Part shown: piece by piece, positions 31,228 to 40,954 of the stretch
How positions within the stretch are numbered: the stretch's first letter is position 1
Layout of the letters: each line of letters opens with the position of its first letter
NCBI GenBank assembly: GCA_022447825.1
Contig: JAKUTY010000002.1
Location: 11,963-75,962, forward strand
Length of the DNA: 64,000 nt
Direction of reading: 5' to 3'
Source: SAR202 cluster bacterium
Lineage (GTDB): Bacteria; Chloroflexota; Dehalococcoidia; Lucifugimonadales; UBA826
The notes under the pieces: model-generated
Seen by the model: the letters and a program-made list of their open reading frames with translations, nothing else
What the model was told of the DNA's origin: nothing
The model's database searches: none
Program-made: the position numbers and the translations under genes

Positions 31228-31976
31228 TATGTTGCTCTACCGCCACTGGCATCATATGCAGCACCAGTACTAAAAGAACATTCTTCAGAGCACAACCATG
31301 AAACTAGTGCAGCAATTTCTTTGATCTCTCCTGTTCTGCCCATGGGAATTTTATCTGTCATATATTTGATTTGTTCAGGTGTAAATTCATCTAGTAATTT
31401 TGTTTGAACAACTGCTGGGGTTACACAATTTACTAGTACATTTGACCCAGCCAATTCTTTGCCTACTGATTTTGTTAATGCGATGACCGCTGCTTTTGTA
31501 CTTGAATATGGGACCATTCTGGGATTTCCTTCTTTACCAGCAGTCGATGCCATATTAACTATTCTTCCAAAGTTGTTATCAACCATATGAGGAATAACTG
31601 CCTGACAAAATAAAAATACTCCCCTTAGGTTGATTTGATATACTCTGTCTAACTCTTCAACATCTAATTCCCATATATTTCCGTTAATTCCACCGATTCC
31701 AGCGTTGTTAACTAGTATGTCTATTTTGCCCCATGCGGCTAATGTATTTTTTACTGCTTCAATAGATGTCGTAGGTTGGGAGACATCTCCTAGTGTTAAC
31801 TGTACATTCCCAGGATTTTTTGAATTTATTTCACTAACTGATTGAGATCCGATTTCAGAATTAAAATCTACAACCATAACATTAGCGCCTTCACTAGATA
31901 ATCTTTCCGTGATGCCATATCCAATGCCGTCTCCACCACCAGTTACAATTGCAACTTTATTTTCAAACCTCATCAT
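31224..31976 (-). CDS. short-chain dehydrogenase/reductase (FabG-like)
   Basis: TGGGDGIG cofactor motif, NNAG, catalytic YSSTK; 250 aa. Confidence 0.85.
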   Translation of the reverse strand: MMRFENKVAIVTGGGDGIGYGITERLSSEGANVMVVDFNSEIGSQSVSEINSKNPGNVQLTLGDVSQPTTSIEAVKNTLAAWGKIDILVNNAGIGGINGNIWELDVEELDRVYQINLRGVFLFCQAVIPHMVDNNFGRIVNMASTAGKEGNPRMVPYSSTKAAVIALTKSVGKELAGSNVLVNCVTPAVVQTKLLDEFTPEQIKYMTDKIPMGRTGEIKEIAALVSWLCSEECSFSTGAAYDASGGRATY

Positions 31977-33184
31977 GATTTTTTCTTTCCAGGGTAGGTG
32001 TTGTAAATTTTTGTAGCTTCAGCAACTGCTGCACCTTGAGCTACTTCGTATCCAACTCTAGATAAAATACTTTCGATAGCTGATAAGAATGTGAGTACAT
32101 ATTCTTGTTTACTGGATTCTCCCATCAGTCCAACTCTCCAAACTTTTCCTGAAAAATCACCTAAACCTCTTCCTAACTCTATAGAGAATTCGTTTAATAG
32201 CATGTTTCTTACTTCCATGTCATCAACACCTTCTGGGATCCAAACTGGAGTGATTTGTTCTAATCGGCTTCCTTGAGGTGCCACTGCGTTCAATCCAATA
32301 GCTTGTAGGCCCGCATTTAATGCCTCTGCATTGATTCTGTGTCTTTCAAATCTTGTTTCTAGACCTTCTTCCATAACAATTCTTAATGCTTCATTAATTC
32401 CATAGAGCATTGAAACTGGAGCTGTGTGATGATAAACCCTTTCTTCTCCCCAATATTTACACAATAATTCTAAATCTAGATACCAAGAAACAGGTTTATT
32501 TTTTCTGTTTCTAATAGTCTCTAAAGCTCGGTCACTTACAACAGCAGGAGATAGGCCGGGAGGGGCTCCTAAGCATTTTTGAGATGCTGAATAAGAGTAA
32601 TCAATATCCCAATTGTCTATTTCTATATTTCTTCCAGAAAAAGTTGTGACAGCATCAACCATAAATAAAGCATCATGTTGCTTAGCAATTTTTGAAATTC
32701 CTTCTAGAGGTTGGGCTATTCCTGTAGATGTCTCTCCATGAATTGCCGTTACAAGTTTGATATCGGAATGTTTTTTAATTTCTTGTTCTAGTAGCTCTTC
32801 TGGAAATGGAGCACCCCATTCTGCTCTAATTGGTATAACGTCTGCTCCAATTCTTTCTCCCATTTCAACCATTCTTTCACAAAAAAATCCGTAAATACAC
32901 ATAATTACTTTGTCGCCTGGCTCTAACAAGCTTGAGAGGCCTGCTTCCATTCCAGCAGATCCAGTCCCGGGTATAGCTAATGTCGATTGTTTTGTTTTGT
33001 AGACATTTTTTAAATGTCCTGAAATTTCATCTAATACTTCTATGAAGTCAGGATCTAGATACCCAATCATACTTTGCATCATTGCCTGCAAAACTCTTGG
33101 GTGGGCCATGCTGGGTCCTGGACCAAGTAATATTTTGTTTGGCATAGGTTGAGCAGTAATTACTTTATCTGCGTATTTGGTCAT
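31973..33184 (-). CDS. class V aminotransferase (serine/alanine-glyoxylate aminotransferase-like)
   Basis: PLP-lysine context SASQKCLGAPPG. Start moved to ATG 33184 (MTKYADK), 4 nt after GGAGG (33193-33189), which lies just downstream of the manC stop. The track start 33232 would overlap manC by 38 nt. Confidence 0.85.
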   Translation of the reverse strand: MTKYADKVITAQPMPNKILLGPGPSMAHPRVLQAMMQSMIGYLDPDFIEVLDEISGHLKNVYKTKQSTLAIPGTGSAGMEAGLSSLLEPGDKVIMCIYGFFCERMVEMGERIGADVIPIRAEWGAPFPEELLEQEIKKHSDIKLVTAIHGETSTGIAQPLEGISKIAKQHDALFMVDAVTTFSGRNIEIDNWDIDYSYSASQKCLGAPPGLSPAVVSDRALETIRNRKNKPVSWYLDLELLCKYWGEERVYHHTAPVSMLYGINEALRIVMEEGLETRFERHRINAEALNAGLQAIGLNAVAPQGSRLEQITPVWIPEGVDDMEVRNMLLNEFSIELGRGLGDFSGKVWRVGLMGESSKQEYVLTFLSAIESILSRVGYEVAQGAAVAEATKIYNTYPGKKKS

Positions 33185-33194
33185 TGGTCCTCCG

Positions 33195-34589
33195 TTAGGT
33201 GCTAGAGTTTGTTCTAGCGTATTTGTCTTCAAATCTAGTGATATCGTCTTCTTCTAAATATACCCCAGTTTGTATTTCTAGGAGACATAAATTTTCATGT
33301 TTTGAATTTTCTATTCTATGTTTAGATCCTTGAGGAATAAATATTGAATCATTTTGATTTAAATTAAACGTTTCTTTTTCTACTGTAACTTTAGCTACTC
33401 CCTGAGTAATTATCCAGTGTTCAGATCTGAATTGATGGCTTTGAAGAGATGTGGCTTCACCCGAAAAAATCGTGAGTTTTTTAATTTGTTGACCTGAAGT
33501 TCTACTTAAAATCTCATAATATCCCCATGGTTTATCAAATTTTTGTGAAGTTTGATTAGATTGGATCAAGATTTCTCCATTATTTTCTACAACAAAAACA
33601 TCGGTAATATTATTAGCAGTAATTATTTGATTTTGAGAAACTATTAAAGAATTTCTAACATTTGAATGAGATATATTCCCTTTAAAGTAATTATCGTTTT
33701 CAGTTTTGAAGAACTTCCAAATTGATGACCATTCTCCTAAATCCGTCCATTGAGAACTTAATTTTATAGCAGACAATTTTGATTTGTATTCATTTTCTTT
33801 TTGCATTTTTTCTAAAACTGCATGATCAATAGAAATTGGTTTGATTTTTAGAAAATGAGATGGGTCTAAATTTATAGTTTTGGATTCTAAATTGGAATTT
33901 TTTAAAGATGATTCGCACTGTTTTAAGACTTCTGGAGCAAATTTTTCCATTAGTCTTAACCACAGGCTTGACTTAAGAATGAAATTTCCGGAATTCCATA
34001 GATAATTTTTGCTTCTGATCATTTTTTTTGCATTATGAACTGATGGTTTTTCTACAAACTCTTTTACTTGATATTCATTTTTTGAGGATTTAATTTGATT
34101 GATTTTAAGATATCCGTATTGGGGATTAGGGTGTGTAGGCTCAACACCAACTAAAACAACATTTTCTTCAAATGCAATTTTAATTGCATTTGAAATTTCT
34201 TGAGAAAATTCTTTCTCATCCGATATCCATTGATCCGAATGGATTGAAATCATTATGCCGTCTCCAAATTGTTTTTTTATAAGGATTGCGGCTAATGTCA
34301 AAGCTGGTGCTGTGTTTTTAATTTCAGGCTCTAAAATAATTGATGCAATTGCTGACTTAACTTTTTCGGCTTGGTCATTTACCAAAGATTGATGATTTTG
34401 GTTACAAACAATTATTGGGTTATTTAATTGACCTATTGATGTGTTTAATTTGTCTAATCTTTGAAGAGTATTTTGGAACAATGAATACTGTCCATCAAAT
34501 GATATGAATGGTTTTGGAACATCTGAGGTCGATAATGGCCATAGTCTTTTGCCAGAACCCCCAGTAAGAATTACTGGTTGAATGATCAT
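33195..34589 (-). CDS. manC: mannose-1-phosphate guanylyltransferase / mannose-6-phosphate isomerase (type II)
   Basis: N-terminal GGSGKRLWPLS nucleotidyltransferase motif and C-terminal cupin (KPWGYYE..., SEHWII.QG); 464 aa. Confidence 0.85.
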   Translation of the reverse strand: MIIQPVILTGGSGKRLWPLSTSDVPKPFISFDGQYSLFQNTLQRLDKLNTSIGQLNNPIIVCNQNHQSLVNDQAEKVKSAIASIILEPEIKNTAPALTLAAILIKKQFGDGIMISIHSDQWISDEKEFSQEISNAIKIAFEENVVLVGVEPTHPNPQYGYLKINQIKSSKNEYQVKEFVEKPSVHNAKKMIRSKNYLWNSGNFILKSSLWLRLMEKFAPEVLKQCESSLKNSNLESKTINLDPSHFLKIKPISIDHAVLEKMQKENEYKSKLSAIKLSSQWTDLGEWSSIWKFFKTENDNYFKGNISHSNVRNSLIVSQNQIITANNITDVFVVENNGEILIQSNQTSQKFDKPWGYYEILSRTSGQQIKKLTIFSGEATSLQSHQFRSEHWIITQGVAKVTVEKETFNLNQNDSIFIPQGSKHRIENSKHENLCLLEIQTGVYLEEDDITRFEDKYARTNSST

Positions 34590-34722: not shown

Positions 34723-35577
34723 ATGGGTAAATTAGATAATAAAGTAGTGATAGTGACTGGAGCTAGTAGAGGAATTGGAGCTGAGATAGCAAACTTGTTT
34801 GCTAAAGAAGGAGGAAAAGTTGTTTGTGCTGCTAGAACTCTTAAAGAAGGTGACCATCCACTGGAAGGTTCTTTAGAAAAGACTGTTAGTGATATTAATG
34901 AATTTGGAGGCGAAGCCGTTGCAGTTACTGCAAATATTTCTTTGCCAGAAGATTGCGAAAAATTGTTTCAAGATACTTTAGATTTATATGGGGATGTAGA
35001 TGTGTTAGTTAATAATGCAGCATTGACATATTTTGTACCTGTAAAAGATTATCAGATTAATAGATGGATGAGATCGTGGGCTGTGAATTTTCATGCACCG
35101 TTTATTTTAAGTCAGTTGGCAGTAAATCATATGATTCCAAAAAACTCCGGTAGTATAGTGAATATTTCTTCTGGAGCAGCAATTGGGCCCGGAAGAGGCC
35201 CTTATGAAAATGTCCCTTCAAATTCTGGTGGGACTTGTTATGGTGCAGAAAAAGCTGCCTTGGAACGTTTTACTCAAGGTCTAGCTCAAGAAGTTTTTGA
35301 TTATGGTATTTCTGTAACTAGTTTAGCTCCTTCTCAAGTTGTACCGACACCTGGAACAGTATTTCACAATCTTGTGACAGGATTAGACGATCCCAAAAGT
35401 GAGCATCCAAAATTGATGGCTGATGCAGCATTGCTTTTAGCTACAGAACCAGTAGATAAAATTAGTGGTAGGGTCACTTATACTCAACAGATTTTGAGTG
35501 AATATGGTTTAATTTCTGACCCAAAAGGTACTGGTGTAGAGGGCGGTAGGGTAGGCAGTGGATATAGCCAAATTTAA
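34723..35577 (+). CDS. short-chain dehydrogenase/reductase
   Basis: TGASRGIG, NNAA and YGAEKAAL catalytic motif; 284 aa. Confidence 0.8.
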   Translation: MGKLDNKVVIVTGASRGIGAEIANLFAKEGGKVVCAARTLKEGDHPLEGSLEKTVSDINEFGGEAVAVTANISLPEDCEKLFQDTLDLYGDVDVLVNNAALTYFVPVKDYQINRWMRSWAVNFHAPFILSQLAVNHMIPKNSGSIVNISSGAAIGPGRGPYENVPSNSGGTCYGAEKAALERFTQGLAQEVFDYGISVTSLAPSQVVPTPGTVFHNLVTGLDDPKSEHPKLMADAALLLATEPVDKISGRVTYTQQILSEYGLISDPKGTGVEGGRVGSGYSQI

Positions 35578-35692
35578 TAGAGAATAAAATCTTAAAAAAC
35601 TTACAGCTAAAAACTCCTTGATTGTAACTACTAGAATTGTTTATTGTCAGTTCTGTAAAAACTAATTAGAAGTACTTTTCTTCGGGGGAATT

Positions 35693-37642
35693 ATGAAGCT
35701 GACTCGAGCACGAGTAACTAACTACAGAAGTATAGATGATTCAACGTGGGTGAATTTAGAAGATGTCACTGCTTTAGTTGGCAAAAATGAATCTGGAAAA
35801 ACAGCCTTTCTTCAGGCTTTGAGAAAAATTAATTCTATTGCCGGAATTGAAGATCAATTTAGTATTAGAGATTATCCACGTAAAGGATACATAAAATATA
35901 AGAAAATTCATCAAGAAAATCCCGGTACTGTTGTTCAAGCTGAATTTCAATTATCTGAAGCTGAGTTTACCGAAATCGAATCTTTTTTCGGTAAAGGAAT
36001 TTTAAGTACAGATACTGTCGTAGTAGGAATGAATTATAAAAACGAAAGATCTTGGGACATCGAAATTTCTTCTGCAGTTATAAATCAGCCACAACAATCT
36101 TCATCAGAAATTGAATTAATTTGCAAACAAATTGAAGATGAATTTCTTGAAAAATGGTTGCCTAAGTTTGTTTATTTTGATAACTACAGCATTATGCGTG
36201 GGAAACTTTCCATTAATGATCTGCAAGATCGTTTGAAAACTAACGGCCCTTTAGATGATGCTGATAGAACATTTTTGTCACTTTTAACTTTATCGGGAGT
36301 TTCATTAGAAGATCTGCAACAAGATTTAGGATATGAAGATATTAAAGTTGAATTGGAATCTGCGTCTATAAATATTACCGACGAGATATTTGAATATTGG
36401 CATCAAAATCGACAATTAAAAGTAGAATTTGATGTATCTCAAGCAGACCCTAGAGACCCGGCACCATTAAATGAAGGAAAGATTTTACACGTACGAATTG
36501 AAAATTCTAGGCATAGAGTAACAGTATCTTTTGATGAAAGATCAAAAGGTTTTGTTTGGTTTTTCTCTTTCTTGGCATATTTTTCTCATTTAGAAGAAAC
36601 AGAATCTAGTGATTTGGTAATTTTATTAGATGAGCCTGGGACTGCATTGCATGCAATGGCTCAGAAAGATTTTTTAAGATTCATGGATGAAAGATTAGCT
36701 CCAAGATGCCAAGTTGTTTATTCTACACACTCCCCATTTATGGTTGATTTACAAAAATTACAAAGAGTTCGTACAGTTCAAGATATGGATGGTAAAGGTA
36801 CTGTAATTAGTCAGGATGCTAGTAAAAACGACCGTGAGACAGTTTTTCCGTTACAAATGGCTCTTGGGTATCAAATGGCCCAAACATTATTTATGGCCCC
36901 TCATTGCTTGATGGTCAATAATCCTTCTGACCTTATATATTTACAAGTCATGGGAAATTTAGTTTCTAGAGACTTTGACATTAGAATTGATCCTAGGTGG
37001 GTGATTATTCCAATAGGTGGTACTGAGAATTTATCTACATTTATTTCTTTATTGGGTGAAAATTATGTGAGTGTAGCTGTAATGATGGATATTACCCCCA
37101 CTAATAGGCAAAAAATTGATGATATCAATCAGTCAACTCAAACCTTTATAGATAACCCGGTTAAATGGGTAGAAGTAACTAGAATAAGAGATGCTGATAT
37201 TGAAGATTTATTTCCACCCAATCTTTATTTGGACTTGGTTAATCAAGCCTATGGGAATCAATTAAAAGAACCTTTGACAATGAAATTGATTACTGACAGG
37301 AATCCTAGAATTGTAGAAAGAATTTCTTTATATTTTGATAAAAATAACATCTGTGGAGGTGTTTTTGACAGATATATTCCAGCTGCTTATTTATTAGAAA
37401 ATTTTCACGTTTGGCAGAATTTAATCCCACCAGAAACAGTTGAGAAAATCTCTACTTTAATTTCTAAAATCAATTCTTTGTTGGCAGATAGTCAAGAAAA
37501 AGATATAGATCAAAAATCTAATCTTTCTATAGACTCTAATGAAAATAGATCGGAATCAAATAAAGATTCAGTATCTCCATTTGATTCGATTATTTCTGAA
37601 ATAGATGAGTCTACTAATTTTCCTGTACAAACGCAGTTCTAA
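35693..37642 (+). CDS. OLD-family-like ABC/SMC-type ATPase with C-terminal TOPRIM-like region (apparently degenerate)
   Basis: The N-terminus (NYRSIDD...ALVGKNESGKTAFLQAL, Walker A at 35780-35803) resembles OLD/AAA_15 ATPases. Signature-like RSKGFVWFFSF, Walker B VILLDEPGTALH and H-loop STHSP follow. Residues ~406-469 follow the OLD TOPRIM layout, but read VNNPSD and DIT where E-G and DxD are expected. The C-terminal tail looks disordered. Confidence 0.65.
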   Translation: MKLTRARVTNYRSIDDSTWVNLEDVTALVGKNESGKTAFLQALRKINSIAGIEDQFSIRDYPRKGYIKYKKIHQENPGTVVQAEFQLSEAEFTEIESFFGKGILSTDTVVVGMNYKNERSWDIEISSAVINQPQQSSSEIELICKQIEDEFLEKWLPKFVYFDNYSIMRGKLSINDLQDRLKTNGPLDDADRTFLSLLTLSGVSLEDLQQDLGYEDIKVELESASINITDEIFEYWHQNRQLKVEFDVSQADPRDPAPLNEGKILHVRIENSRHRVTVSFDERSKGFVWFFSFLAYFSHLEETESSDLVILLDEPGTALHAMAQKDFLRFMDERLAPRCQVVYSTHSPFMVDLQKLQRVRTVQDMDGKGTVISQDASKNDRETVFPLQMALGYQMAQTLFMAPHCLMVNNPSDLIYLQVMGNLVSRDFDIRIDPRWVIIPIGGTENLSTFISLLGENYVSVAVMMDITPTNRQKIDDINQSTQTFIDNPVKWVEVTRIRDADIEDLFPPNLYLDLVNQAYGNQLKEPLTMKLITDRNPRIVERISLYFDKNNICGGVFDRYIPAAYLLENFHVWQNLIPPETVEKISTLISKINSLLADSQEKDIDQKSNLSIDSNENRSESNKDSVSPFDSIISEIDESTNFPVQTQF

Positions 37643-37677: not shown

Positions 37678-39030
37678 ATGAACTTTATTGACTCAGTCAA
37701 CAGAACTTTTACTTTGGTAGATTTTGAAAGAAATCAGAATCTACCTGCACATTCTACTTTTCATTTGCAAAGAATCTCAGAATTTTTAGATAATCTTGAT
37801 AATCCTCATTTGAAGATTCCTACTATTCATGTTGCTGGAACTAAAGGTAAAGGGAGCGTTTGTTCACTCATAACTTCAATATTGACAAAAAATGACAAAA
37901 AAGTTGGACTAATTACCTCCCCTCATCTTCATAGTGTGACTGAAAGAATTAGATTGGGTTCTGATCCGATTGATCAAAATGATTTTATTGACTTGGTGAA
38001 TGAATTATGGCCAAAAGTTGAACATCATAATCATTCTAGTTCTTTTGGAGAGCTGACTTGGTTTGAATTTATGATTGCAGCAAGTTTTTATTATTTTGAA
38101 AAATGTGGGGTTGATTTTCAGGTAGTTGAAACAGGCTTAGGTGGAAGACTGGATGCCACTAATGTTGTACATCCTATTGTGAGTGTGATTACTTCAATTA
38201 GTTTGGATCATACAAAAATTTTAGGTGAAACTATAGAAGAAATTTCATTTGAGAAAGCCGGCATTATTAAATCAGGGATTCCCATAGTTTTATCTCCTCA
38301 AAAATTTGATGAAGCATTTGACGTGATTGCAGATATAGCAAGTCAACGAAATGCAGATTTGATAAGTGTTTCAGACTTATATCATGTAGAAAATGTACGC
38401 AATTTGCGTACATCTCAAGTATTTGATGTGAAATTACAAAATGTATCTTATCAATTTGAATTGGGATTATTGGGCGATTATCAAATTGAAAATGCGTTGA
38501 CAGCATTAGGCGCCATAAATGTTTTAAGATCTTCTGGTTTTGAAATATCTGATGAATCCATTTCGGAAGGTTGCAGGCAAGTGGTTTGGAGTGGCAGGTT
38601 TGAATACCTTAGTACTATTAATGATAGTTTTGAAATTTTAGTTGATGGAGCTCATAACGTTTATTCTATGGAGTGCGTAGTCCAAGAAATAAAAAACCTT
38701 AAATATGAAAAATTGATTGTGATATTTGGTGGATTAGGGTCACATGATTTAAAGGGAATGTTAGGTGTTTTGTCTTCATTAGATCCTATTTTAATTGGAG
38801 TTCATTCACGACACCCGAGATCAGTTCAATCTTCTTTAATTCAATTACAATCACATAATATGAAATTTAGAGACCAATTTTTCTTCGATTCTGTTGCAGA
38901 TGGATTTGACTATGCTAGTAAGATATCCGATAAGGGTGATTTAATTTTAGCTACTGGATCGTTATCAGTAGTTGCAGAAGTCATTGAATCTCATAAAGAA
39001 ATTCTACCTGAGTTGTATCAAAGTTTTTAG
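37678..39030 (+). CDS. folC: folylpolyglutamate synthase / dihydrofolate synthase
   Basis: Mur-ligase P-loop HVAGTKGKGS and TSPHL motif; 450 aa. Confidence 0.85.
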   Translation: MNFIDSVNRTFTLVDFERNQNLPAHSTFHLQRISEFLDNLDNPHLKIPTIHVAGTKGKGSVCSLITSILTKNDKKVGLITSPHLHSVTERIRLGSDPIDQNDFIDLVNELWPKVEHHNHSSSFGELTWFEFMIAASFYYFEKCGVDFQVVETGLGGRLDATNVVHPIVSVITSISLDHTKILGETIEEISFEKAGIIKSGIPIVLSPQKFDEAFDVIADIASQRNADLISVSDLYHVENVRNLRTSQVFDVKLQNVSYQFELGLLGDYQIENALTALGAINVLRSSGFEISDESISEGCRQVVWSGRFEYLSTINDSFEILVDGAHNVYSMECVVQEIKNLKYEKLIVIFGGLGSHDLKGMLGVLSSLDPILIGVHSRHPRSVQSSLIQLQSHNMKFRDQFFFDSVADGFDYASKISDKGDLILATGSLSVVAEVIESHKEILPELYQSF

Positions 39031-39035
39031 AGTTT

Positions 39036-40316
39036 ATGAAAGGATTGAAATTGCAAAACCAGCAAAATTTAAAAGATAAAAAAAGAGTTGTTGTAACTGG
39101 ATTAGGTGTCATGTCTCCATTAGGGGAAAGTGTGGATGAGTATTGGGATTCTCTCAAGAATTCGAAATCTGGTATATCAAACATTACTCTTTGCGATACG
39201 TCAGGTTTCCCATCTGCTATTGCAGGAGAGGTTTCAGGGTTTGACGCTGGTCAATATATAAATCCAAAAGAAGCTAGAAGAATGGCAAGATTTTCACAAT
39301 TAGCAGTTTCTGCAGCATCCACAGCAATAGAAGATTCTAAATTGGATTTTAACAAAGAGAATTTAGAAAGATTTGGAGTTGTGATGGGTAATGGAAATGG
39401 AGGTTTACCAACTACTGAAGAGAATGCAGAAGTTTTGTTTTCAAAAGGGGGTATGAAAATAAGTCCCTTTTTTGTTCCTATGATTTTACCTAATATGGCT
39501 GCAGCCCAGATTAGTAGAGTTTTTGGTATTAAAGGATATTCTTCTACAGTTATTACTGCTTGTGCTGCAGGAAATCAAGCAATTGGTGAGGCAACTGAAG
39601 TTATAAGAAGAGGTACTGCTGATGTGGTAGTAGCAGGAGGAACTGAGGCAGGTATCAGTAGGATTGGACTAGGTGGATTCCATGTAATTAAGGCCTTAAG
39701 TCGATTTTCAGGAGATCCTACATTAGCTAGTAAGCCATTTGATGCTAATCGAGATGGATTTGTTCCTGCTGAAGGAGCAGGAGTTTTGATTTTAGAAAGT
39801 TTAGAACATGCAGTGTCTAGAGGGGCAGAAATTAAAGCGGAAATAGTAGGTTATGGGATCACTTCTGATGCTTTTCATCCTGTTCAACCAGATGATACGG
39901 GTGATGGAGCTTCTAGAGCAATTAAGCTTGCTATGAGTGATGCAAATATTTCTGCTACTGATTTGGATTATATTAATGCTCATGGGACATCGACTCCTTT
40001 AAATGATGCTTCAGAAACTAAAGCTATCAAGAAAGCTTTGGGTGACCATGCCTATAAAATACCCATTAGTTCTACAAAATCTATGATTGGGCATGTATTA
40101 GGTGGTGCGGGAGCAATTGAAGGTGTTGCTGTGGTGAAATCGATACAAGAATCTATAATTCATCCAACAGTTAATCAAAATGTTCCTGATCCGGATTGCG
40201 ATTTGAATTATGTTCCAAATGTTAAATTGGACAAAAAAATTAACTTTGCTTTATCAAATAATTTTGGATTTGGTGGGCAGAACGCTTGCGTAATATTTGC
40301 AGATTTTAATCGTTAG
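39036..40316 (+). CDS. fabF: 3-oxoacyl-ACP synthase II
   Basis: Active-site context ITACAAG, HGTSTP, GHVLGGAG and NNFGFGGQN. Confidence 0.92.
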   Translation: MKGLKLQNQQNLKDKKRVVVTGLGVMSPLGESVDEYWDSLKNSKSGISNITLCDTSGFPSAIAGEVSGFDAGQYINPKEARRMARFSQLAVSAASTAIEDSKLDFNKENLERFGVVMGNGNGGLPTTEENAEVLFSKGGMKISPFFVPMILPNMAAAQISRVFGIKGYSSTVITACAAGNQAIGEATEVIRRGTADVVVAGGTEAGISRIGLGGFHVIKALSRFSGDPTLASKPFDANRDGFVPAEGAGVLILESLEHAVSRGAEIKAEIVGYGITSDAFHPVQPDDTGDGASRAIKLAMSDANISATDLDYINAHGTSTPLNDASETKAIKKALGDHAYKIPISSTKSMIGHVLGGAGAIEGVAVVKSIQESIIHPTVNQNVPDPDCDLNYVPNVKLDKKINFALSNNFGFGGQNACVIFADFNR

Positions 40317-40954
40317 AATTCTACTGATTCCATAAAATCTACATAAGTATTGAGGGTGATGTCGTTTCTGCGGTTTCTTAAGGCTTCTTCTCTGTCCCAA
40401 ATTTGGTCTTGTGATTCATTTGATTTAATTGAATCAAATCTTGTTTGTTCCCAGTGAGTTGGACTGTTGTACCCAGTTAATAATGTGATTTCAGTAGGAG
40501 TAGTAGACGATAGAGTTGTCCACATTCCAATGATACTAGCTCCCATTTTTTCCATTCTAGGCCATATACCATCTTCAGAACATTCTACAAATTCTTTAAC
40601 ATTAGATGATGATATATAAAATTTTCTGAGACCATAAAATGGCCTTCTATCTTCAGGGGGAATAATTTCCTTTGGCCGCGTACTTATTGATTGCAATAGA
40701 GAAACCGCTTCATGTTCTATAAATTCACTTCGGTCAACGGCCCACGCGCCTTGTGAAGTTTTTAAATCATCAAAGTTGTTAAAGGATGTAATCTGAACTA
40801 AGTGAGTTTTTGGTTTTCCAATTACTCCACCAACCACACATAAAATCTGGCCACCTGCTGTGCGAATTGATGGCCACACATTTGATCTGCAGTAGGCCAA
40901 ATATTCTGATAATTCACTTTTTTTAATAATAGTTTTTCTTTCTTCGGCTAGCAT
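40313..40954 (-). CDS. NIPSNAP-like (tandem dimeric alpha-beta barrel) protein
   Basis: Two repeats. The second (YGLRKFYISSSNVKEFVE...GMWTT...TLLTGYNSPTHWEQTR) fits the NIPSNAP pattern. Confidence 0.5.
   Translation of the reverse strand: MLAEERKTIIKKSELSEYLAYCRSNVWPSIRTAGGQILCVVGGVIGKPKTHLVQITSFNNFDDLKTSQGAWAVDRSEFIEHEAVSLLQSISTRPKEIIPPEDRRPFYGLRKFYISSSNVKEFVECSEDGIWPRMEKMGASIIGMWTTLSSTTPTEITLLTGYNSPTHWEQTRFDSIKSNESQDQIWDREEALRNRRNDITLNTYVDFMESVEF

Follow-up and report, generated by a model that had tools for sequence, protein, structure and literature searches.

We analysed a 64,000-nucleotide stretch (hereafter, the window) of contig JAKUTY010000002.1 from a SAR202 cluster bacterium of the Chloroflexota, and in it a stand-alone gene of the OLD family, which encodes an ABC ATPase fused to a Toprim domain. 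The protein is a variant new to the OLD family and lies outside its named classes. In this protein and its Chloroflexota orthologues, which we call the N clade, Asn takes the place of the Glu that binds metal A in the Toprim site. The gene is vertically inherited and functionally constrained, as concluded from its low ratio of nonsynonymous to synonymous substitution rates (dN/dS), a divergence that tracks those of the neighbouring genes fabF, folC and SDR2, and a stable locus. We give about an even chance (roughly 0.5) to the explanation that the protein is an exapted OLD ATPase, whose nuclease would be attenuated or altered and which would serve a constitutive cellular process rather than phage defence.

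An OLD-family protein with an intact ATPase head

The domain order of the protein is ABC ATPase head, Toprim fold, helical domain and disordered tail. Its features are given below. Residues of the Toprim site are compared with those of Thermus scotoductus OLD (TsOLD, PDB 6P74) and of GajA from the Gabija system, and model confidence is given as the predicted local distance difference test score (pLDDT) of an AlphaFold (AF2) model.

35693..37642, plus strand: OLD-family ATPase-Toprim gene, 649 amino acids plus stop; member of the Chloroflexota N clade
35693..36892, plus strand: ABC ATPase head with an inserted helical/dimerisation region, about residues 1-400; AAA_15/AAA_21; pLDDT mostly >90
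35780..35803, plus strand: Walker A GKNESGKT, residues 30-37; K36 in 249/251 family sequences
36539..36553, plus strand: signature-like RSKGF, followed by VWFFSF; residues 283-287; S284 in 251/251 family sequences
36620..36637, plus strand: Walker B ILLDEP, residues 310-315 (D313, E314); D313 in 251/251 family sequences
36722..36736, plus strand: H-loop STHSP, residues 344-348; H346 in 250/251 family sequences
36893..37216, plus strand: Toprim-fold domain, about residues 401-508; from AF2 secondary structure and HMMER alignments
36917..36922, plus strand: Asn409-Asn410 in place of the Toprim Glu-Gly (metal-A Glu); from alignment to TsOLD and GajA
36929..36931, plus strand: Asp413, aligned with the TsOLD metal-B ligand D381 and kept; 26/26 in the N clade
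37088..37096, plus strand: Asp466-Ile-Thr468; D466 corresponds to TsOLD D431 and is kept, position 468 corresponds to TsOLD D433; from the profile alignment
37193..37213, plus strand: ADIEDLF acidic cluster, probable metal-B site; residues 501-507 (D502, E504, D505)
37217..37534, plus strand: C-terminal helical domain, about residues 509-614; AF2 helices; includes NPRIVER (R539, R543) and FDRYIPA
37364..37384, plus strand: FDRYIPA, residues 558-564, with Arg560 in place of the family His
37535..37639, plus strand: disordered low-complexity tail, a clade-specific extension; about residues 615-649; pLDDT <50 from about residue 622
37619..37639, plus strand: conserved C-terminal heptapeptide FPVQTQF-COOH

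The initial annotation had described an open reading frame of 649 residues with an OLD/AAA_15-type ABC ATPase head and a low-complexity tail, and the analysis bears it out on all three points. Pfam matches the protein with AAA_15 (1.2e-21) and AAA_21 (2.2e-15), and Walker A, Walker B and the H-loop, by which an OLD-family ATPase is recognised, are all present and conserved in 25-26 of the 26 N-clade sequences analysed. With all its motifs intact, the ATPase of the window protein looks competent. A match of the N-terminus to DUF2813 (YbjD-type) is weak (0.0033). The top PADLOC matches are the AriA (residues 1-351, ATPase only, 3.2e-24), Old and GajA models, the GajA models reaching 40-54 bits; none of the PADLOC scores exceeds 84 bits, and the matches are generic ones at the domain level. 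No NCBIfam model comes near its cut-off for the window protein (retron_eff_Eco8 scores 34.7 bits against a cut-off of 250). Relatives that retain the Toprim Glu (hereafter, Glu-type sequences) likewise gave only generic ATPase/Old matches in PADLOC, of at most 95 bits. The generic PADLOC matches and the lack of an NCBIfam model near its cut-off indicate that the whole family is without a dedicated model.

An altered metal-A site in a real Toprim fold

The AF2 model, built on 128 diverse relatives (pLDDT 90.8, predicted template modelling score 0.82), contains strands at residues 404-408, 436-440 and 460-465 and helices at 411-428, 444-454 and 469-481. These form a beta-alpha-beta-alpha-beta core, in which N409 follows strand 1 and D466 follows strand 3. 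The closest PDB folds to the model are GajA (8u7i_A, E = 2.7e-15, 670 aligned columns) and TsOLD (1.5e-14); the SMC, Rad50 and PtuA heads come next. In HMMER alignments, CLMVNNPSD aligns to LLVEGYGD of TsOLD and LLIEGPSE of GajA, so that N409 is equivalent to TsOLD E377 and GajA E379; in the family-profile alignment, D413 is equivalent to TsOLD D381 and D466 to TsOLD D431. The PADLOC Old model spans residues 294-471. The window protein itself did not match PF20469 (OLD-like_TOPRIM) in the Pfam search, and Glu-type homologues aligned over their full length score above the PF20469 threshold at the corresponding stretch. The Toprim layout proposed earlier for about residues 404-468 is thus real, as judged from the HMMER alignments, the PADLOC Old model, the PF20469 matches of the Glu-type homologues and the AF2 model.

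In TsOLD, metal A is bound by E377, D431 and D433, and metal B by D381, S478 and E480, with R487 as the basic catalytic residue (PMC7049728). The window protein carries Asn409 where an OLD protein has the catalytic Glu after strand 1, and of the DxD motif after strand 3 it has D466, with Thr at position 468. Glu-Gly is the family norm at positions 409 and 410 (E in 118/153 and G in 109/153 sequences; E409 in 201/251 of a larger set). The replacement of Glu-Gly by Asn-Asn, noted in the initial annotation, is accordingly genuine. Its further claim, that the change of DxD to DIT is a loss, does not hold: D466 is kept, and the second Asp is rare even in Glu-type members, where position 468 is mostly filled by other residues (S68, A43, H34 and D10 among 201 sequences). 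The acidic cluster is strongly conserved, E504 and D505 occurring in essentially all 251 family sequences. The correspondence of D502, E504, R539 and position 560 (His in most of the family) to S478, E480 and R487 of TsOLD follows motif order only and is tentative; a profile of the Toprim and helical domains retrieved one spurious match only from the PDB sequences.

Asn409 is found in 26/26 N-clade sequences, and residue 410 varies. Within the clade, D413, D502, E504, D505, R539 and R543 are kept in 26/26 sequences, D466 in 25/26 and T468 in 23/26, and the motif C[LM][LM]VNxPSD occurs in 119/120 marine orthologues. The metal-A triple mutant of TsOLD shows a 12-15-fold decrease in activity while plasmid nicking persists, and single-site mutants (metal A or metal B) of TsOLD and a class 2 OLD still nick plasmids (PMC7049728). 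The metal-A site of the window protein therefore appears crippled or altered, and this does not amount to a demonstrably dead enzyme. The initial annotation had called the Toprim module inactivated. It was right about the loss of the canonical Glu-Gly, but the word is too strong, since the changes are confined to the metal-A Glu and a coupled His, Asn409 is invariant, the acidic cluster is conserved, and the TsOLD mutants still nick.

The N clade and the coupled loss of His560

An exhaustive search of cluster representatives recovered 788 at E<1e-30, most of them 620-670 amino acids long, with the alignment reaching about residue 598. The signature of the family, from 251 aligned relatives, is LLVEGPSD ... 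AVLxD ... [EA]ADIEDLF ... RIVKR ... F[NSD]HYxPA. Every sequence with 53% or more identity to the window protein has [LI][LM]VN-x, AVLMDVTP and FD[PSRA]Y, whereas all those below 53% identity carry VEG and the His. The N clade is monophyletic; its 26 analysed sequences form a split in 100/100 neighbour-joining bootstrap replicates. All named members are Chloroflexota, Dehalococcoidia or SAR202 metagenome-assembled genomes, and the nearest relatives of the clade form a mixed bacterial/archaeal Glu-type clade.

The His of the F-x-H-Y motif (H560) is present in 188/201 Glu-type sequences, in 0/26 N-clade sequences and in 3/24 other non-Glu sequences. Since the two residues co-vary across the family, we infer that His560 would share one functional site with Glu409. 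Both changes, Glu to Asn and the coupled loss of the His, became fixed on the stem leading to this old Chloroflexota clade.

Independent losses of the Glu are also seen in about 10% of the family representatives that lie outside the N clade, its place being taken by K, D, Q, G, P, R, S, A or N (P0127, P0158, P0161, P0164, P0170, P0172, P0185, P0188, P0210, P0211, P0213, P0216, P0223, P0224, P0228, P0230, P0248, P0249, P0260, P0262, P0264 and P0266). In these sequences His560 is usually gone too, and D466 or D502 often. Loss of the nuclease site thus recurs in this OLD clade. A few family members are much longer (P0189, 1086 amino acids; P0221, 981; P0235, 795; P0177, 728), which suggests fusions to extra N- or C-terminal domains.

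The tail is another property of the clade. The median length past the last family helix is 24 residues in sequences of the N409 class, as against 1 residue in Glu-type sequences. The dN/dS of the tail is 0.255, compared with 0.06 for the whole gene, and the heptapeptide at its very end, which the initial annotation had missed, is conserved. The C-terminus is TQF, TKF or TRF in 119/120 marine orthologues (LPVQTQF in 90 and LPLQTQF in 15), and soil and groundwater members of the N clade have R[TA]LAPT-like C-terminal peptides instead. No other protein in the window ends in QTQF. The heptapeptide may be a docking peptide or a degron. Mimicry of a beta-clamp-binding motif or an SSB tail was considered and dropped, as the peptide does not fit the consensus sequences QL[SD]LF or D-I-P-F.

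A vertically inherited gene under purifying selection

The gene lies in a run of ordinary genes, in the order dnaK, DUF3500, NHL, MOSC, SDR1 (a short-chain dehydrogenase, SDR), aminotransferase, ManC, SDR2, OLD, folC and fabF, with oppD and oppF further on. The parts of the locus adjoining the OLD gene are as follows.

34723..35577, plus strand: SDR2, short-chain dehydrogenase, recurrent upstream neighbour; probably a separate transcript
35578..35692, plus strand: intergenic region with a probable own promoter (inferred) and ribosome-binding site (GGGGGA before ATG)
37678..40316, plus strand: folC (37678-39030) and fabF (39036-40316), recurrent downstream neighbours; probably co-transcribed with the OLD gene

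As described earlier, the gene stands alone between an SDR and folC-fabF. Its window neighbours include no helicase, DUF4435, reverse transcriptase or integrase gene, the 20-52 kb part of the window contains no tRNA, and the window holds no second OLD paralogue. The same gene order is found on contigs with orthologues of 671-673 amino acids, which are 67-68% identical to the window protein. In a scan of one genome per GTDB species with the upstream SDR2 as bait, SDR2-OLD was found in 9/9 loci in which SDR2 is at least 80% identical and the contig reaches far enough downstream (L008, L009, L010, L011, L013, L015, L017, L018 and L053, with L010 labelled SAR202-II), and folC and fabF come next wherever the contig continues. 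More distant N-clade members, at 52-59% identity, show SDR2-OLD in two complete Dehalococcoidia chromosomes of 3.4-3.8 Mb (L019 and L020) and in L095, NUDIX-GNAT-OLD-folC-fabF in L092, L093 and L096, and NUDIX-GNAT-OLD beside mutL in L094. These seven distant loci contain no integrases, defence genes or tRNAs. L092 alone has a housekeeping-type UvrD with a tudor domain about 3 kb upstream of the OLD gene.

The dN/dS of the OLD gene, measured between the window and a relative with 96% SDR2 (L008), is 0.061, with 0.010-0.12 for the ATPase parts, 0.067 for the Toprim and 0.064 for the helical domain. The neighbours gave 0.039 (SDR2), 0.032 (fabF) and 0.139 (folC). A pseudogene was rejected on the dN/dS. 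Pairwise protein divergence of OLD across 12-13 loci correlates with that of fabF (r=0.98), folC (0.92) and SDR2 (0.86; Mantel p=0.001 each), and OLD evolves at 1.3x the rate of fabF and 0.7x that of folC. Horizontal acquisition was also rejected, with a GC content equal to that of the flanks (0.33 for the OLD gene and 0.345 for the window) and no tRNA or integrase.

These data bear on the proposal of the initial annotation that the gene is an uncharacterised defence system, perhaps a minimal single-gene one. The proposal is unsupported, as the gene is syntenic in 9/9 loci, under purifying selection as strong as that acting on its housekeeping neighbours, and co-divergent with them. The comparison of the SDR-folC junction across genomes, suggested in the same place, identifies it as a conserved syntenic core gene of the lineage, the outcome there named as speaking against the proposal.

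Mobile relatives of the N clade

The Glu-type relatives have a scattered taxonomy (Methanoregula, Methanoculleus, Methanothrix, Bdellovibrio, Planctomycetota and Thermoleophilaceae). In Methanoregula, the gene adjoins HEPN_Swt1, DUF4062-HATPase_c_4, Dam, DUF4238 and DndB. In Bdellovibrio bacteriovorus (CP168968.1; L090, 11461-14719), it adjoins a phage integrase and a pair of SLATT_5 and reverse-transcriptase genes that is like a defence-associated reverse-transcriptase module, and in Thermoleophilaceae it lies among small helix-turn-helix and hypothetical genes. Family members are carried by 53 IMG/VR viral contigs, at no more than 41% identity. We inspected 23 full-length copies, and our search patterns picked out the VEG motif in 19 and the His motif in 18 of them; none of the members on IMG/VR viral contigs belongs to the N clade. 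From the defence and mobile contexts and the viral contigs of the Glu-type relatives, we conclude that the parent family behaves as a mobile, stand-alone (Class 1-type) OLD defence gene and that the N clade is a domesticated offshoot. The derivation from nuclease-competent ancestors, raised in the initial annotation, is supported.

Transcription and surrounding genes

The gap between OLD and folC is 35 nucleotides in the window and 6-7 nucleotides in the group of 671-residue orthologues, with no terminator-like site on the plus strand, and co-transcription of the OLD gene with folC-fabF is plausible. A terminator scan flagged an inverted repeat with a 15-bp stem (GAATCAAATGGAGATACTGAATCTTTATTTGATTC, minus strand) at 37553-37587, within the tail-coding region, which may be a mere reflection of the low-complexity sequence.

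A simple sigma-70 scan of 35578..35692 gave no plus-strand site. In the 671-residue group, the SDR2 stop precedes a hairpin, and beyond the hairpin lies a conserved promoter-like block. This block (AAACAttGTATgTAAATGcCTTGCCTTTGA...CTCTGTGGTTAGTTTGAA) lies upstream of the orthologues at L001 7819-8000, L010 10856-11038 and equivalent positions, and a second conserved block (TAAGGTGTAAATcGtAGAGGTGGAgAAGCTATG) follows about 100 nucleotides beyond it. The two blocks suggest a promoter and a long conserved 5' leader. The upstream region in the window is shorter and without this leader. A LexA/SOS-type box was sought upstream and not found; the inverted repeat after SDR2 in the 671-residue group looks like a terminator hairpin.

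Two minus-strand genes further upstream differ among the loci. The ManC-like gene (33195-34589) has a GC content of 0.28-0.31, markedly below its flanks, and its identity to the gene found at this position in SAR202-II loci is only 37-40%, compared with 54-84% for its neighbours. The aminotransferase gene (31973-33232, 419 amino acids) is absent from SAR202-II loci, which have a 56-residue open reading frame in its place. The segment 31973-34589 looks like a replaced, variable surface-sugar cassette within the syntenic block. Downstream of fabF, a 213-residue open reading frame on the minus strand (40313-40954) has no counterpart at the same position in SAR202-II loci, which carry there a gene for a 94-residue ABM-domain protein and a phosphoribosyltransferase gene.

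Possible function and alternative explanations

According to the explanation that we favour, the N clade would have arisen from a horizontally mobile OLD clade borne on defence islands and prophages. The protein would be an ATP-driven, probably dimeric machine that engages nucleic acids, like the SMC, Rad50, RecF and OLD heads. Its Toprim module may now act mainly in metal and nucleic-acid binding or in regulation, with phosphodiester cleavage strongly attenuated or altered, and the C-terminal peptide may recruit a partner or, as a degron, control turnover. The process served would be constitutive and cellular, most plausibly a DNA or chromosome transaction, rather than that of a mobile anti-phage module, and in the marine lineage the gene would probably be expressed together with folC-fabF.

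Several observations weigh against this explanation. The presumed loss of nuclease activity draws on two substitutions only, and TsOLD metal-A triple mutants retain nicking (PMC7049728). With Asn409 invariant and the acidic cluster intact, a real catalytic site could persist in altered form. As YbjD shows, an OLD gene that is conserved and chromosomal can still confer anti-phage phenotypes by means of its ATPase alone (PMC13261556). The neighbours, which belong to folate and fatty-acid synthesis or are SDR and NUDIX/GNAT genes, do not hint at a DNA transaction. Where SDR2 is no more than 76% identical (loci L016 and L021-L087), the OLD gene is not beside SDR2.

Some of these points would fit a working nickase or nuclease in which the Asn409 site gives slower or differently regulated cleavage as the cellular function, either as a Cran1-like ATPase-nickase on the chromosome or with a tRNA- or RNA-directed activity like that of P2 Old. 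Asn409 is invariant while positions 410 and 560 drift, which argues for a role of the Asn itself, for example in metal coordination through its carbonyl oxygen. The other residues of the site (D413, D466, D502, E504, D505 and R539) are kept in the clade, and the Toprim dN/dS is 0.067. Single-site mutants of TsOLD and class 2 OLD still nick plasmids (PMC7049728), and Cran1 provides a vertically inherited OLD with nickase activity (PMC12796447). However, Glu is the rule in the family (201 Glu-type sequences) and comes with His560 in 94% of them, both residues were replaced on the stem of the clade, TsOLD metal-A mutants lose 12-15-fold activity (PMC7049728), and conserved residues are equally expected of a module that binds metal or nucleic acid and does not cleave. 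We regard a working nuclease as doubtful.

The ancestry of the clade gives some room to an anti-phage system of the abortive-infection type, a single gene fixed in the lineage and acting through its ATPase like YbjD/OldB. Defence islands and prophages are the typical setting of the parent family, the top PADLOC matches are the AriA, Old and GajA models, and the induced phenotype of YbjD needs its ATPase and not its Toprim domain (PMC13261556). The locus, on the other hand, is a stable one, in which the gene diverges in step with its housekeeping neighbours to identities as low as about 52-59%. Viral contigs yielded no N-clade member, nor did any lie next to a mobile or defence gene in the seven lineages examined. 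The dN/dS of the gene is 0.06, and constraint on the Toprim and helical domains is as strong as on the ATPase, which is unexpected if they are dispensable, and the PADLOC scores (at most 84 bits) are generic ones at the domain level. An anti-phage role is thus unlikely. The canonical Glu-Gly is lost and a low-complexity tail is present, as in a decaying relic of a defence nuclease without current function, but such a relic is refuted by the selection and conservation data and can practically be dismissed: thousands of metagenomic variants keep an intact reading frame, the dN/dS is 0.06, long invariant blocks persist between orthologues of 68% identity, and the clade itself persists down to about 53% identity.

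A bolder version of the exaptation scenario, which we put forward tentatively and with more doubt than belief, would make the N clade the bacterial counterpart of Cran1. SAR202 and other Dehalococcoidia would have permanently recruited an OLD ATPase as a core factor of chromosome or DNA maintenance, and its Toprim, once a two-metal nuclease, would now engage DNA without cleaving it (or with a single metal under tight gating). The C-terminal peptide would tether it to a replication, repair or proteolysis partner, and the whole would be a fused RecF/RecR-like machine made from an immune nuclease.

Significance

To our knowledge, OLD-family proteins have been treated almost entirely as anti-phage nucleases, with archaeal Cran1 as the only documented exception. 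The N clade points to a second, independent OLD recruitment, in bacteria, with a fixed change of the catalytic Glu and the coupled His, and in hosts, SAR202 and related Dehalococcoidia, that form an abundant ocean lineage. It also offers a natural contrast between nuclease-competent and nuclease-altered proteins within one family (LLVEGPSD...FxHY versus LMVNxPSD...FDxY), which could be used to learn how the ATPase and Toprim act in a protein whose output is something other than cleavage. A full-text search of the literature on the OLD family, Toprim and Chloroflexi found no description of the N clade. The analysis also draws attention to a gene under strong conservation, to which annotation pipelines at present give the label 'ATP-dependent nuclease' or 'AAA family ATPase'.

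Comparison with known OLD systems

The window protein is placed outside the named OLD classes because it lacks the residues and context of Class 1, the GajB of Class 2, the reverse transcriptase of Class 3 and the clade membership of Class 5, and differs from Class 4 in its fused Toprim and the lack of AriB. Like the window protein, the Class 1 proteins (TsOLD, P2 Old and Vibrio cholerae OLD) are stand-alone and consist of an ABC ATPase and a C-terminal Toprim. Of the proteins with solved structures, TsOLD matches best in sequence (1.4e-10 for the single sequence and 4.7e-19 for the family profile), yet its identity to the window protein is only about 15%. Its metal-A E377 is Asn in the window protein, where the second Asp of DxD is also missing, and it is without the helical domain (PMC7049728) that, together with the disordered tail, forms the C-terminal part of the window protein. 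Class 1 homologues all conserve E, DxD, D, S/T-x-E and R/K (PMC7049728), and they occur in prophage or defence contexts, in contrast to the vertically inherited gene at a housekeeping locus described here. The isolated gene is thus of the Class 1 kind, whereas the catalytic residues and, in seven lineages, the mobile or prophage context are not.

YbjD/OldB of Escherichia coli is, like the window gene, a chromosomal stand-alone OLD among ordinary genes (PMC13261556). In this conserved Class 1 OLD, the induced anti-phage phenotype needs the ATPase and not the Toprim domain (PMC13261556). The acidic residues of the Toprim are retained in YbjD. In the window protein, the Toprim and helical domains are strongly constrained.

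GajA of Gabija (Class 2) has the closest full-length fold, an aligned strand-1 motif and, as in the window protein, a helical domain after the Toprim. Gabija differs in its GajB, a UvrD/PcrA-like helicase, which is absent beside the OLD gene in the window and at orthologous loci, and the catalytic Glu is replaced in the window protein. Retron-associated OLD (Class 3) does not apply, with no reverse transcriptase among the neighbours. AriA of PARIS (Class 4), the top PADLOC match for the window ATPase head, shows an OLD-type ATPase acting as a sensor and not as a nuclease. It is without a Toprim and works with a separate AriB (DUF4435) nuclease, whereas the window protein has a fused Toprim and no AriB-like gene nearby.

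RecF-RecR combines an SMC/Rad50-like ABC ATPase with a Toprim module of no known catalysis in a housekeeping DNA transaction. The likeness is an analogy of working only, as homology is limited to domain superfamilies and no evidence ties the window protein to recombination.

Cran1, the Class 5 OLD of Sulfolobales, belongs to the archaeal clade U11, which is restricted to Sulfolobales. It is chromatin-associated, was demonstrated by experiment to be essential and cell-cycle regulated, and is an active nickase apparently not involved in defence (PMC12796447). The N clade differs in being bacterial, in belonging to a different, mixed bacterial/archaeal clade and in the replacement of the metal-A Glu. 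The window protein is not a member of U11, and the shared vertical inheritance without defence context is no evidence of membership; the motifs WFFSF and GKNESGKT do not occur in the part of the OLD dataset of PMC12796447 that was covered. Nevertheless, the N clade resembles Cran1 in being lineage-restricted, vertically inherited and outside a defence context, with an apparently cellular function (PMC12796447).

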